NCBI GenBank assembly: GCA_963755025.1 | Contig: CAVWIH010000034.1 | Span: 1-64,000 of the forward strand | Direction: 5' to 3' | DNA: 64,000 bases | From: an uncultured Actinomycetes bacterium | GTDB lineage: Bacteria; Actinomycetota; Thermoleophilia; UBA2241 | Shown here: piece after piece, positions 46,232 to 61,511 of the stretch | How the letters are laid out: the number at the start of each line of letters is the position of its first letter | Numbering within the stretch: the stretch's first letter is position 1 | Program-made: the position numbers and the translations under genes | Notes under the pieces: generated by a model | What the model saw: the letters and a program-made list of their open reading frames with translations, nothing else | Database searches by the model: none | What the model was told of the DNA's origin: nothing

Positions 46232-47428
46232 GTGATTCCCGAAGGCATGCGCGACGTGCTGCCCGCCGAGGCGGCGGAGCTGCGCGCGATCGAGCAGATC
46301 GTGCTGGGCCGCTTCAACGCCTACGGCTACGGCGAGGTGCGCCCTCCGGCGCTCGAATACCCCGAGACCATGGAGCGCGCCGGCGTCGACCAGGCCTCGT
46401 CGGGCTTTCACCTCTACGACGAGCGCGGCCGCGCTCTCGTGCTGCGCACCGACCTGAGCACGGCCGTCGCCCGTCTGGCCGCCGACCGGCTGAGCGAGCG
46501 GCCGCTGCCCCTGCGCCTGGCCTACGAGGGGCCGGTCTACCGCACCGAGGCGACTCACAACCGCCGCGAGGGCGAGTTCTCGCAGCTCGGCGCCGAGCTG
46601 CTCGGCCTGGGCGCCGCGGCCGCCGACGCCGAGGTCGTCGTGCTGCTGTGCGACGCGCTCAGCGCGACCGGCCTGCGCGGTTTTCGCCTGGCGATCGGCA
46701 GCGTGGCGTTCCACCGCGAGCTGGTCGCCGCGCTGGGCCTGACGCCCGACGACAGCGACGACGTCTTCGACGCGCTGGCCGCCCGCGACTACGCCCTGCT
46801 CGAGACGATCGTCTCGCGGCGCGGCGTGAGCGACGAAGGCCGCAAGACCCTGCAGCGGGCGCTCGACCTGTCTCCGGGCAAAGGTGCGCTCACCGCGGCC
46901 CGCAAGCTGTCGAGCAGCGAGGGCATGGAAGACGTCGTCGACCGGCTCGTGCGGGTCCAGGAGCTGGCCGACGACGCCGGCTACGGCGACCTTGTCGGCT
47001 TCGACTTCGGCCTCATGCCCGAGCTCGGCTACTACACGGGCATCGTCTTCGAGGCCTGGGCTCCTGGCGTCGACTTTCCGGTCGCCATGGGCGGCCGCTA
47101 CGATCGCCTGCTGGCCGCTTTCGACTGGCCCATCCCGGCCGCCGGCTTCACGATCGACCTCGACCGGCTGCACCAGGCCCTGGTCGACGAGGGGGCCGGC
47201 GTGGCGCCGCTGTTCCCGCCGGCGCTGTCGTACGTGGGTGGGCTCGACGACCCCAAACGCGTCGACGACCTGCGCCGCCACGGCATCGCCGTCGCCGCCC
47301 TGCCCGGCGACGCCTCGGCGCGCATGCCGCGGCTGAGCGAGGAGCGCGGCGAGTTCGTCTTGGAGATGCCCGACGGTACCGCGCGAGGCTCGTGGCGCGA
47401 CGTGCTGCGCGCCCTCGGAGCCGGGTGA
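46232..47428 (+). CDS. hisZ: ATP phosphoribosyltransferase regulatory subunit
   Basis: PEGMRDVLP, EFSQLGAELLG, YYTGIVFE and GGRYDRL; HisRS-like without an anticodon domain; directly upstream of hisG. Confidence 0.88.
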   Translation: MIPEGMRDVLPAEAAELRAIEQIVLGRFNAYGYGEVRPPALEYPETMERAGVDQASSGFHLYDERGRALVLRTDLSTAVARLAADRLSERPLPLRLAYEGPVYRTEATHNRREGEFSQLGAELLGLGAAAADAEVVVLLCDALSATGLRGFRLAIGSVAFHRELVAALGLTPDDSDDVFDALAARDYALLETIVSRRGVSDEGRKTLQRALDLSPGKGALTAARKLSSSEGMEDVVDRLVRVQELADDAGYGDLVGFDFGLMPELGYYTGIVFEAWAPGVDFPVAMGGRYDRLLAAFDWPIPAAGFTIDLDRLHQALVDEGAGVAPLFPPALSYVGGLDDPKRVDDLRRHGIAVAALPGDASARMPRLSEERGEFVLEMPDGTARGSWRDVLRALGAG

Positions 47429-47444
47429 GCCGGTGAATCGGTGA
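47425..47444 (+). other. Two chained 3-codon ORFs bridging hisZ and hisG
   Basis: GTGA at 47425, 47433 and 47441 (8-nt period): GTG AGC CGG TGA / GTG AAT CGG TGA / GTG of hisG. Confidence 0.55.
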
Positions 47445-48163
47445 CCCTGCGCATCGTGGTTCCCGACGGCGCGCTGCGCGCGCCGTCGCTCGAGCTCTTC
47501 GCCGCCGCCGGCTTTGGCGGCGACGGCCGCGCGGCCCCAGACGGTCGCCCGGCCGAAGAGGGCGGTGCCCCGGCCGGCAAGGGACATCCGGCCGACGAGG
47601 GCCATCCGGCCGGCGAGGGCCGCCCGGCCAACGATCTCGACGTGCGCCTCGCGGTGGTGGCCGCCGCCGACGTGCCGGCCTACCTTTCGAGCGGCGCCGC
47701 CCACGCCGGGCTCGTCGCCAAAGACGCGCTGCTCGAGCGCGCCACCCGGCTCTGCGAGCTGCTCGACTTGCGCTTCGGCGCCGGGCAGCTCGTCTACGCC
47801 GTCGCGCCCGGCGCCGAGGTGCGCGCCGAGCGGCTCGGGCGCCTGCGCATCGCCACTCGCCACCCGGCCCTCACGCGCTCGTACTTTCGCGCGCGCGGCC
47901 TGCAGGTGAGCATCGTGCCGGTCGACGGCACGCTCGACCGGGCCGTCACCGACGGCCTCGCCGACGGCGTCGTGACGCTCGTCGAGACGACCCCGACGGG
48001 CAGCGCGCCGGCGGGCGTCGCGGGGCTCACTGTCGAGGGCGTCGTGGCCGAGACCAGCATCCGCCTGGTCGCCGGGCGCGGCGCCCGCGTGTTGCACGGC
48101 GCCGAGCTGGGGGTGGTTGTAGCGGGCCTGCGCGACCTGCTCGCCGGCAGGAGCGCGTCGTGA
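47441..48163 (+). CDS. hisG: Short-form ATP phosphoribosyltransferase homolog with degenerate active site
   Basis: Fold motifs are recognisable (DVPAYLSSGAAHAGLVAKDALLE, LDLRFG, RIATRHP, GLADG). PKGR is PDGA, GSVE is GTLD and DIVETGxTL is TLVETTPTG. Confidence 0.8.
   Translation: MTLRIVVPDGALRAPSLELFAAAGFGGDGRAAPDGRPAEEGGAPAGKGHPADEGHPAGEGRPANDLDVRLAVVAAADVPAYLSSGAAHAGLVAKDALLERATRLCELLDLRFGAGQLVYAVAPGAEVRAERLGRLRIATRHPALTRSYFRARGLQVSIVPVDGTLDRAVTDGLADGVVTLVETTPTGSAPAGVAGLTVEGVVAETSIRLVAGRGARVLHGAELGVVVAGLRDLLAGRSAS
47540..47632 (+). repeat. In-frame ~18-bp minisatellite inside hisG (5 degenerate units)
   Basis: gacggtcgcccggccgaa / gagggcggtgccccggccggc / aagggacatccggccgac / gagggccatccggccggc / gagggccgcccggccaac. 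Confidence 0.75.
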
Positions 48164-48274
48164 ACCGGTCGACCGTCGCCGGCAGGACGGCGTCGTGAGA
48201 CGGCCGGCGCCGGACGGTGGGGGAGAGGCATGAGGCGACAAAAGCTCGGCTACGAGGGAGAGCCATGAGACGGC
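48141..48274 (+). repeat. Degenerate 35-bp tandem repeat forming three chained 12-codon ORFs between hisG and hisD
   Basis: RTGA at 48160, 48195, 48230 and 48265. ORFs VNRSTVAGRTAS*, VRRPAPDGGGEA* and MRRQKLGYEGEP*. Confidence 0.8.
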
Positions 48275-59504: not shown

Positions 59505-60988
59505 ACAAGGGACGCATCGTGCAGGTCATCGGCGCCGTGGTCGACGCTCACTTCCCCGACGAGCTGCCGGCTATCTACAACGCGTTGAAGATCACGATCG
59601 ACCGCGAAGGTCAGCCGGTCGAGCTCATCGCCGAAGTGCAGCAGCACCTCGGCGATGACAAGGTGCGCGCCGTGGCCATGGATGCGACCGACGGTCTGGC
59701 GCGCGGCGCCGAGGTCGTCGACACCGGCGCGCAGATGACCGTCCCGGTCGGCCCGGCGACCCTGGGTCGCCTGACGAACGTGATGGGGCAGACCATCGAC
59801 CACTTAGGCGACGACCTGAGCGGCGCCGAGCGCTGGCCGATCCACCGGCCGGCCCCCGACTTCGAGTCGCTCGACCCCACCGACGAGCTCTTCGAGACAG
59901 GCATCAAGGTGATCGACCTGCTCGCCCCCTACGTCAAGGGCGGCAAGATCGGCCTGTTCGGCGGCGCCGGCGTGGGCAAGACCGTCATCGTGCAGGAGCT
60001 TATCCACAACATCGCCACGCAGCACGGCGGCTTGTCCGTGTTCTGCGGCGTGGGCGAGCGCACGCGCGAGGGCAACGACCTCTGGCTCGAGATGAAAGAG
60101 TCGGGCGTGATCGACAAGACCGCGCTCGTGTTCGGCCAGATGAACGAACCGCCGGGCGCCCGCATGCGCGTGGCCCTCGCCGGCCTGACCGTGGCCGAGT
60201 ACTTCCGCGAAGAGGGCGGCCAGGACGTCTTGCTGTTCATCGACAACATCTTCCGTTTCGTGCAGGCCGGATCTGAGGTCTCGGCGCTGCTCGGCCGCAT
60301 GCCGAGCGCCGTCGGCTATCAGCCCACCTTGGCCAACGAGATGGGCGAGCTCCAGGAACGCATCACCTCGACCAAGAAGGGTTCGATCACGTCCGTGCAG
60401 GCCATCTACGTGCCGGCCGACGACCTCACCGACCCCGCTCCGGCCGCGACCTTCGCCCACCTCGACGCGACCACGACACTGTCGCGTGCCATCTCGCAGA
60501 AGGGCATCTATCCGGCCGTCGACCCCCTCGACTCGACGTCGCGGATCCTGAGCCCGGCGAACGTCGGCGAGGAGCACTACGCGGTCGCCACTCGTGTCCA
60601 GGAGATCCTGCAGCGCTACAAGGACCTCCAGGACATCATCGCCATCCTCGGCATGGACGAGCTCACCGACGAAGACAAGGTCACCGTGCAGCGCGCGCGG
60701 CGCATCGAGCGCTTCCTCTCGCAGCCGTTCTTCGTGGCCGAGCAGTTCACCGGCGTGCCCGGCAAGTACGTGCCGATCGCCGAGACCGTGCGCGCCTTCA
60801 AGGAGATCGTCGAGGGCAAGCACGACGACTTGCCCGAGCAGGCCTTCTTCATGGTGGGCGGCATCGAAGAGGCGGTCGCCCAGGCGGCCAAGCTCTCCGG
60901 TCACGGCGCCGATCAGCCTGCCGCACAAGCCGCGGCGCCCGACGCCGAAGCACAGGCCGCCGAGGCGGCGCCCCAGGCCGCGAGCTGA
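59501..60988 (+). CDS. atpD: ATP synthase F1 beta subunit
   Basis: [27 protein letters not shown] and DELTDED. Confidence 0.98.
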
Positions 60989-60990
60989 CC

Positions 60991-61425
60991 ATGACCGACC
61001 CAGACGCGCACAGCCTGCAGGTCGAGATCGTCACGCCCGACGGCTCGGTGTACACCGGCGAAGCGAGCATGGTGATCGTGCCCGGCGTCGAAGGCGAGCT
61101 CGGCTTTCTGCCGCACCACGAGCCGCTGGTCTCGCTCGTGGCGATCGGCGAGGCCCGCGTGCAGCTGCCCGACGGCGTCTGGGAGCGCTTCGCCACCGGC
61201 ATCGGCTACGTGCAGGTGCTGTTCGACAAAGTGCTCCTGGTCGTCGACCAGGCCGAGCAGGCGGGCAAGATCGACGTGGCCCGCGCCGAGGCGGCCCGCA
61301 AGCGGGCCGACGAGCGGCTCGCCCTGCGCGGCGACCCGGGCGCCCACGCCGAGGTCGACTTCTACAAGGCCGAGCAGGCGCTGCGCCGCTCCGAGAACCG
61401 GCTGAAGGTCGCGGCTCGCGTATGA
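60991..61425 (+). CDS. atpC: ATP synthase F1 epsilon subunit
   Basis: VEIVTPDG, GELGFLPHHEP and IDVARAEAA. Confidence 0.95.
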   Translation: MTDPDAHSLQVEIVTPDGSVYTGEASMVIVPGVEGELGFLPHHEPLVSLVAIGEARVQLPDGVWERFATGIGYVQVLFDKVLLVVDQAEQAGKIDVARAEAARKRADERLALRGDPGAHAEVDFYKAEQALRRSENRLKVAARV

Positions 61426-61511
61426 GCGCGCCCCGGCGCGCCCTGCCGGGCGACGGCGAGGCTGGGTCGGGGCCGCGCCCCACGGCCGGCGCGTCGCGGG
61501 GCCGGCCGTGA
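61422..61511 (+). other. 29-codon bridging ORF between atpC and murA
   Basis: ATGA overlap with the atpC stop; MSAPRRALPGDGEAGSGPRPTAGASRGRP*; GTGA overlap with the murA start. Confidence 0.45.

Follow-up and report, generated by a model that had tools for sequence, protein, structure and literature searches.

Translational coupling of adjacent genes is described for pairs in which the stop codon of one gene shares 4 nt (ATGA or GTGA) or 1 nt (TAATG) with the start codon of the other (Huber et al., 2019, 2023; D'Halluin et al., preprint) and, according to the title of Huber et al. (2023), it requires overlaps or very short distances. Here we deal with small open reading frames (ORFs) that have this same geometry at both of their ends and thereby span the gap between two co-directional genes. 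They were noticed in the his and atp operons of a 64,000-nt stretch of DNA (positions 1 to 64,000 of contig CAVWIH010000034.1, assembly GCA_963755025.1, hereafter the window) from an uncultured Actinomycetes bacterium of the Thermoleophilia, in an earlier note that saw in them a possible relay of ribosomes. We refer to these ORFs as bridges, and they fill operon gaps far more often than chance throughout the genome.

Two of the closest described systems come from mycobacteria; both, like the other literature cited here, are summarized from the parts of the sources that were available. Mycobacterial interspersed repetitive units (MIRUs), for example those of senX3-regX3, are tandem intercistronic units with ORFs that overlap the flanking genes, and they have been read as a way of inserting DNA with little effect on expression (PMC12548453; PMC3184786). 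Their units measure 77 and 53 bp, with a copy number that varies between strains (PMC4213456), and they form a dispersed family of about 40-50 copies that is thought to be mobile (PMC3184786). The second system is that of the RTGA-coupled small ORFs, whose TGA supplies bases of the RTG with which the following gene starts (Shell et al., 2015; PMC4633059). These are over-represented (23/220 vs. 32/1000), conserve the coupling and not the peptide, and have been proposed to deliver ribosomes. NUGA overlaps between two upstream ORFs (uORFs) have been reported in Mycobacterium tuberculosis as well (D'Halluin et al., preprint). In bicistronic designs, a short leader ORF with its stop overlapping the start of the target gene delivers ribosomes (PMC12548453); unlike the bridges, these are engineered, have a Shine-Dalgarno (SD) start of their own and lack any coupling to a gene upstream. 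The available text of Smith et al. (2022; PMC9094748) makes no mention of coupling or reinitiation, and a full-text search of the literature, covering few subscription journals, found no genome-wide test of gap phase for doubly coupled spacers.

The hisG-hisD spacer of the window resembles the MIRUs in being made up of tandem units between two genes, with ORFs that overlap these genes, and in a copy number that varies between close relatives (0-3 units among congeners). The MIRU units of 77 and 53 bp are 2 mod 3, and so are the periods of 35 nt and 8 nt among the bridges. The hisG-hisD spacer differs in that MIRU units are of 40-100 bp and occur in tens of copies, whereas the his unit measures 35 nt and is without another copy in the genome; besides, most bridges are single, unique sequences. 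With the ORFs of Shell et al. (2015) the bridges share the phylum Actinomycetota, an excess of the TGA/RTG overlap (odds ratio, OR, 3.1; 92 found vs. ~36 expected) and a coupling that outlasts the peptide (nine shared bridges, seven of them of altered length, and the hisZ-hisG junction). The mycobacterial ORFs, however, begin at the 5' ends of leaderless transcripts, whereas the bridges begin on the stop codon of the upstream gene inside an operon, so that their coupling is two-sided and chains can form. Unlike the view taken by Huber et al. (2023), a relay over such ORFs would stretch coupling over gaps of up to ~100 nt. The findings extend both the RTGA-coupled small ORFs and the MIRUs of mycobacteria; new are the unique (non-repeat) doubly coupled ORFs in operons, the phase test, the conservation of the frame across species and the Thermoleophilia setting.

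Bridges in the his and atp operons

The window belongs to the draft genome (G000) of a high-GC soil actinobacterium (3.37 Mb, 70% GC, 39 contigs), the nearest public relatives of which are metagenome-assembled genomes labelled Thermoleophilia or Actinomycetes. We defined a bridge as one or more ORFs that start on the upstream stop codon (GTGA, ATGA or TAATG) and end in a TGA overlapping the start of the next gene. The bridges and the genes that border them are the following:

46232-47428, + strand: hisZ
47425-47436, + strand: hisZ-hisG bridge ORF 1 (GTG, two codons and TGA), its GTG overlapping the hisZ stop TGA 47426-47428 as GTGA
47433-47444, + strand: hisZ-hisG bridge ORF 2 (three codons), chained to the first by GTGA, its TGA overlapping the hisG start GTG 47441
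47441-48163, + strand: hisG
48160-48198, + strand: hisG-hisD unit 1 ORF (12 codons), its GTG 48160 overlapping the hisG stop 48161-48163
48195-48233, + strand: hisG-hisD unit 2 ORF (12 codons), with a 5' end similar to the start of hisD
48230-48268, + strand: hisG-hisD unit 3 ORF (12 codons), its ATGA end lying on the hisD start ATG 48265
48265-49527, + strand: hisD
53998-62809, + strand: atpZ, atpI, atpB, atpE, atpF, atpH, atpA, atpG, atpD, atpC and murA, the genes bordering the atp bridges
54255-54299, + strand: atpZ-atpI bridge ORF (14 codons), from GTGA to ATGA
59421-59504, + strand: atpG-atpD bridge ORF (27 codons), with a TAATG start and an ATGA end
61422-61511, + strand: atpC-murA bridge ORF (29 codons), from ATGA to GTGA

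The names HisZ, HisG, HisD, AtpZ, AtpG, AtpC and MurA are supported by Pfam, as is that of TMEM175 (see below). A Pfam run on the ORF called 'atpI' gave no match, and atpB, atpE, atpF, atpH and atpA are named from operon position only. Both gene orders, his and atp, are kept in the relatives. The five bridges that the earlier note had described are present base for base, and a stop/start overlap of 4 nt or 1 nt can be read directly from the window at both ends of all five chains. As to the starts, murA has two possible ones (GTG 61508 and GTG 61544), and the HisG stretch read from GTG 47441 has a coding-like composition (GC at third codon positions, GC3, of 0.86), with an N-terminus that resembles the usual start of HisG. 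The gene finder used below, which is blind to bridges, picked the same downstream starts as the earlier note.

From hisZ to murA, five of the 12 gaps of 6-200 nt are bridged by our recount, in line with the 5 of roughly 11 first given. This density is not special: local clustering in the his-atp region is not significant (label permutation, P(max>=5)=0.45), and equal windows are found on contig C36.

A genome-wide excess confined to one gap phase

Genes were called with a finder written for this analysis, which combines dicodon log-odds, start-codon type and SD bins under iterative training. It called 3200 genes in the window genome, forming 2267 adjacent co-directional pairs; among these, 310 overlap by -4 and 1138 are separated by gaps of 6-200 nt. 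Bridges fill 92 of the 1138 gaps (81 with a single ORF and 11 with several). When junction contexts were re-matched among gaps (re-pairing null), 29.8+/-5.0 single and 6.4+/-2.3 multi-ORF bridges were expected. A second null, in which spacer interiors were shuffled 200 times, gave 3.0+/-1.5 multi-ORF chains, with a maximum of 8, vs. the 11 observed. The genome-wide count against shuffled spacers, which had been proposed as a check, thus gives an excess for multi-ORF chains, and the re-pairing null gives one for single and multi-ORF bridges.

A single bridge is possible only where the gap length is 1 mod 3, which we call the permissive phase or phase 1. Gaps with NTGA (a start codon overlapping a TGA stop) at both ends number 30/81/23 by phase, the permissive one in the middle, while every other class of junction is flat. 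Within the permissive phase, NTGA at the upstream end is associated with NTGA at the downstream end (2 x 2 table 185, 96; 50, 81; OR 3.1, p=2.3e-7), and in the other two phases the OR is 1.28 and 0.95. The NTGA control is a strict one, because nothing but the upstream gene's last base varies in it. Dissecting the permissive phase by that base, the share of gaps with a downstream NTGA is 0.72 for ATGA (23/32), 0.62 for GTGA (47/76) and 0.48 for TTGA (11/23), vs. 0.41 for CTGA (50/122) and 0.28 for TAG (33/120) as comparison junctions. The gradient ATG>GTG>TTG>CTG is the order of start-codon strength. The bridge frame is free of stops in 72/81 cases vs. 62/96 in the non-start (not NTGA) control, and the effect is present up to a gap length of ~100 nt. 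These data show that the enrichment is explained only by the reading frame.

GTG, TGA and open frames are common at 70% GC and start codons are uncertain, so chance together with annotation artefact could in principle produce such a pattern; the earlier note had itself raised the caveat of chance hits in high-GC DNA. The lack of local clustering, the ~36 bridges that chance would provide genome-wide and the use of gene calls from our own finder fit this explanation, as do two of the window's own bridges: that of atpC-murA is the tail of an open alternative frame of 305 codons, and that of atpG-atpD occurs among relatives at the background rate (3/60). It is answered by the phase-specific controls. 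The association is confined to the permissive phase and set by the last base of the upstream gene, which is invisible to the start caller. It remains, in phase 1 only, under two cruder start rules (OR 2.2 and 2.1), and also in a start-agnostic count (0.35/0.28/0.21/0.15 for A/G/T/C; A/G vs. C, p=1.4e-5). Together with the recurrence in all five relatives and the 28-fold conservation of bridging between congeners described in the next section, this makes chance and artefact a very unlikely explanation of the excess.

Replication and conservation in relatives

Parts of five other genomes (G010, G011, G013, G014 and G024) were passed through the identical pipeline. Counts of gaps with NTGA at both ends, by phase, were 16/31/6 in G011 (phase-1 OR 3.4, p=8.6e-4), 4/12/3 in G010, 3/10/4 in G013, 6/12/5 in G014 and 2/6/4 in G024. 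Pooled, they amount to 31/71/22 of 318/367/326 gaps (p=4e-7), and the three other genera taken alone give p=0.0085.

The comparison of orthologous junctions, which had been proposed as a check, was made between the window genome and 1.18 Mb of its congener G011, with 751 reciprocal best hits (median identity 78%) and 422 adjacent pairs that are orthologous. Bridging is retained far beyond background (bridged-by-bridged table 9, 6; 8, 149; OR 28, p=3e-7). It is also retained within the genus at hisZ-hisG; at atpG-atpD it is not kept even in the closest relative. The spacers themselves have diverged: seven of the nine gaps bridged in both genomes differ in length, and only 8/149 control gaps have an unchanged length. 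The differences in length are multiples of 3 in 14/15 gaps bridged in the window genome vs. 68/149 controls (p=5.8e-4). Coupling is thus kept between congeners while the peptides differ in length and sequence.

A direct -4 overlap and a bridge also interconvert between these two congeners. At 29 junctions one of them has the -4 overlap and the other a gap of 6-200 nt; by phase, 2/10/2 of these have NTGA at both ends, and 11 of the 29 gaps are bridged, vs. ~8% of all gaps. The earlier note held that DNA inserted at a coupled junction survives only if it forms a chain. The enrichment among the transitions agrees with the direction of this claim, and the 18/29 that are unbridged show its 'only if' to be too strong.

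What the bridges are not

A first candidate identity, that of small-protein genes, failed as a general one. Bridges have a GC of.73/.72/.76 at codon positions 1/2/3, flat in the aggregate, vs..71/.49/.91 in genes, and their peptides are not conserved. A frameshift-relic origin was ruled out for most bridges by the same missing codon-position bias in the bridge frame. The two can be considered together, as real small proteins or as coding relics of frameshifts near gene ends at former overlaps. The 31-100 nt bridges do have a slightly coding-like GC (GC3.78 vs. GC2.70-.71), and an indel near the end of the upstream gene would automatically leave the old frame behind as a bridge. Nevertheless, the flat aggregate composition and peptides that vary in length and sequence between congeners while coupling is kept argue against either; the ends of AtpG and AtpD are canonical, so that the atpG-atpD spacer is not a relic, and a neutral relic would be expected to lose the bridge before it lost its codon bias. 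We regard this explanation as extremely improbable for the bridges at large. A single case that would fit it is found in the gap after position 114850 (+ strand) of contig C17, where a 28-codon bridge has, by eye, G/C-rich third positions and a lipobox-like motif; this one may be a small lipoprotein gene rather than a relay. The corresponding genes of G011 overlap directly by -4.

Recent duplication of the junction was likewise rejected as the general source, since junction contexts show no greater similarity in bridged gaps than in the other phases (mean identity 3.9 of 12, whatever the phase). Duplication does account for hisG-hisD and a few others, such as a bridge on C36 (periods 35 and 44). 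A tandem duplication of a junction also lies on the minus strand of contig C37 (47981-48019), with period 39 (0 mod 3), 2.3 copies, a 94% match and NTGA at both ends; its period puts it in the in-frame class, and a possible outcome is an N-terminal extension, not a bridge.

A dispersed repeat family with MIRU-like mobility was also discarded. The 92 bridged spacers share no repeat family, the comparison among those longer than ~20 nt gave one trivial 14-nt match, and no other copy of the 35-nt his unit was found in the window genome.

Finally, containment of stray ribosomes was considered and gave no signal in the non-permissive phases, where frames starting at RTGA run into the next gene about as often as those starting at CTGA (54% vs. 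57% and 58% vs. 66%). Nor is RTGA enriched among frames ending within the spacer (33% vs. 37%); the enrichment is one of the exact stop-start overlap only. Since RTGA frames enter the next gene as often as CTGA frames, the selected feature would be the exact hand-over from stop to start.

History of individual junctions

A way to look at how bridges arise and persist is to follow single junctions through the relatives. The hisZ-hisG junction is bridged in 9/11 same-genus loci and a tenth has a bridged candidate start, although HisG identity is merely 57-67% in most of the loci that share the bridging. Six same-genus loci have a 7-codon ORF in a 16-nt gap, while the clade of the window (three genomes, including L112 and L113) has a 12-nt gap with two 3-codon ORFs. 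The 7-codon bridge has here become two 3-codon bridges in a gap 4 nt shorter, and this shortening puts an internal GTGA in register, so that the chain outlasts a change in length indivisible by 3. In more distant relatives a direct -4 overlap is on offer. Altogether, hisZ-hisG looks like a maintained relay.

The hisG gene itself carries an in-frame tandem repeat at 47546-47634 (period 18/36, 2.4-3.3 copies), which encodes a low-complexity insert rich in Gly/Pro/Ala/Glu between the N-terminus and the Pfam HisG domain (from residue 75). Several HisG matches in relatives start only at query residues 54-76.

At hisG-hisD, the expectation of the earlier note that inserted DNA keeps the chain is borne out by alleles with 0, 1, 2 and 3 units, each of them chained. 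Ten relatives (L114-L123) have no unit and a direct GTGA/ATGA overlap, L113 (genome G004) has one, L112 (G002) has two and the window has three, each of 35 nt with one 12-codon ORF and linked by GTGA/ATGA. The single unit of G004 plainly copies the hisG 3' end with ATGA. In the window, the 3' half of unit 1 again duplicates the end of hisG, the ancestral hisG/hisD junction seems to be represented by the GTGA at 48195, and unit 3 contains an SD-like motif (GGGAGAG). Tandem Repeats Finder did not call this array because the units are too diverged; the mosaic is revealed by in-register alignment. When a -4 junction is duplicated with a period of 2 mod 3 the bridge is automatic and later copies inherit the chain. 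Being the product of tandem duplication, the three ORFs represent one event and not three independent hits. To judge from these alleles, hisG-hisD is a young 35-nt unit, in 0-3 copies, at an ancestral -4 overlap.

Among the atp junctions, the atpZ-atpI bridge ORF contains a perfect 16-nt palindrome, CCTGACGATCGTCAGG, at 54269-54284, which could form a hairpin. The atpC-murA bridge is recent, and the gap is of phase 2 in congeners other than the closest relative. In family-level relatives (L008-L011, L013 and L030) a conserved TATACT lies 8-14 nt before the murA start and suggests that murA has a promoter of its own and perhaps a leaderless transcript. The window's atpC-murA spacer lacks this motif and is bridged instead. 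The atpG-atpD bridge is found in four other relatives. The 3' part of this spacer (59465-59500, GTGAGTCGA...GCGGAGTTGA) is conserved across the genus and the 5' part is not; the conserved end, common to L002-L007, L024 and L028, is likely the ribosome-binding region of atpD.

A possible mechanism and what weighs against it

The geometry of the bridges, their enrichment and the conservation of their frame are observations made on the genomes themselves. A pattern that is frame-specific, graded by start codon and conserved implies that something reads the bridge frame, and the simplest such reader would be a ribosome restarting at the start codon that overlaps the stop. We infer from this that ribosomes would pass along the bridges, and that their passage would be of some benefit. 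In the scheme that we favour, with moderate confidence, bridges are short, non-coding-like frames that are probably translated by weakly selected serial termination-reinitiation. A ribosome finishing the upstream gene at UGA would restart on the overlapping A/G/UUG, read the mini-ORF, stop at the UGA overlapping the next start codon and restart there. The two genes would thereby stay translationally linked over a spacer that would otherwise uncouple them. A -4 junction that takes up an insertion or a tandem duplication with a length of 2 mod 3 would give rise to a bridge, which would then be maintained by a weak selection for the frame and not for the peptide. Under weak selection of this kind, bridges would be gained and lost within a genus.

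Several results weigh against this scheme. Some concern the SD motifs of the window genome: a strong SD precedes 12/74 bridge starts (16%), 21/215 CTGA controls and 121/310 real -4 coupled starts (39%), and the downstream gene is without SD in 29/78 bridged vs. 234/644 unbridged gaps. Neither a loss of SD downstream of bridges nor a gain of SD before bridge starts is thus seen in the gaps of this genome, and the similar frequency downstream means that the downstream genes have no visible dependence on the bridge. Others concern numbers. By the re-paired contexts chance accounts for ~36/92 bridges, so some of the five in the window may be chance, and beyond 100 nt the effect is gone in the window genome (13/11/9 by phase). 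All genes come from the custom finder, with no curated annotation. The replication p-values overstate independence because the relatives are kin, and the four smaller samples (G010, G013, G014 and G024) show a weak within-phase association (pooled OR 1.5, p=0.19). Conservation has its exceptions as well, as 6/15 bridges of the window genome are unbridged gaps in G011. The atpC-murA bridge exists only here and in the closest relative, L002, with the same 82-nt length and many substitutions. That of atpG-atpD is missing from the closest relative, for all its 97% AtpD identity, as well as from five other congeners where it was lost, and the 3/60 resolved high-GC relatives that have it correspond to the background rate; it is sporadic, may be of chance origin and is probably not selected. 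Given the SD results, we take the bridges for an auxiliary hand-over, under weak selection, that comes and goes within the genus.

The same SD results are compatible with an explanation in which the frame bias is real and the bridges have no role in hand-over. Other phases would be harmful, or an untranslated spacer would be exposed to Rho or RNases, and a bridge would be a harmless survivor; the benefit would lie in a continuous ribosome cover (anti-polarity), not in bringing ribosomes to the next start. Bridge starts without SD enrichment, downstream genes that retain their own SD and bridges that are plain tandem duplications of the junction (hisG-hisD and C36) are all in agreement with it, and a preprint on M. 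tuberculosis reports, in its available part, that Rho-dependent termination is lower in overlapping ORFs. However, harm from out-of-frame reading is not visible, as RTGA and CTGA frames enter the next gene equally; stops internal to the spacer are not enriched in RTGA, only the exact overlap is; and most bridges are not recent duplications, as their context identity shows. We therefore consider a bias without hand-over to be unlikely, and keep serial termination-reinitiation as the preferred reading.

Other coupled ORFs in the window

Two further coupled ORFs had been pointed out in the window, at some distance from the his and atp operons:

28262-28314, + strand: TMEM175 uORFs, one of 3 codons (28262-28273, MPA*) and one of 14 codons (28270-28314), with ATGA onto the TMEM175 start 28311
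18660-18686, - strand: half-coupled ORF of 8 codons, its GTG overlapping the stop of an HpaB-family gene

The coupled uORF indicated at 28270 is real (28270-28314, ATGA) and is the second step of a two-step chain joined by ATGA, without coupling to the gene upstream. This makes it a nearer analogue of the ORFs of Shell et al. (2015) than the bridges are. The half-coupled ORF at 18686-18660 is real too and ends 9 nt short of the GTG of the next gene at 18650; the name 'abfD' given to the gene before it does not hold, since Pfam places this gene in the HpaB family.

Meaning for operon spacers of high-GC Actinomycetota

A broader reading, which we find possible and put forward tentatively, is that the operon spacers of high-GC Actinomycetota, up to ~100 nt, may be frame-selected, non-coding ribosome relays in which indels preserve the chain, units of 2 mod 3 may tune ribosome flow and the MIRUs would be a mobile special case. 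The indels allowed would be multiples of 3, or else compensated by an internal NTGA as at hisZ-hisG, and tandem units of 2 mod 3 could expand and contract as a variable-number repeat, which may tune the number of ribosomes that reach the next gene. Coupling has been held to need overlapping or nearly touching genes, and a relay over mini-ORFs would extend it over tens of bases. It would account for the frame-like evolution of some non-coding spacers, and would give a simple evolutionary path between overlapping and separated genes, in both directions. The test of gap phase against junction type uses sequence alone and is applicable to any genome. The intergenic annotation of high-GC genomes would change, as ~5% of the operon gaps here hold an excess bridge, and a prediction follows for the genes themselves: the output of a gene can depend on which synonymous codon ends the gene before it.

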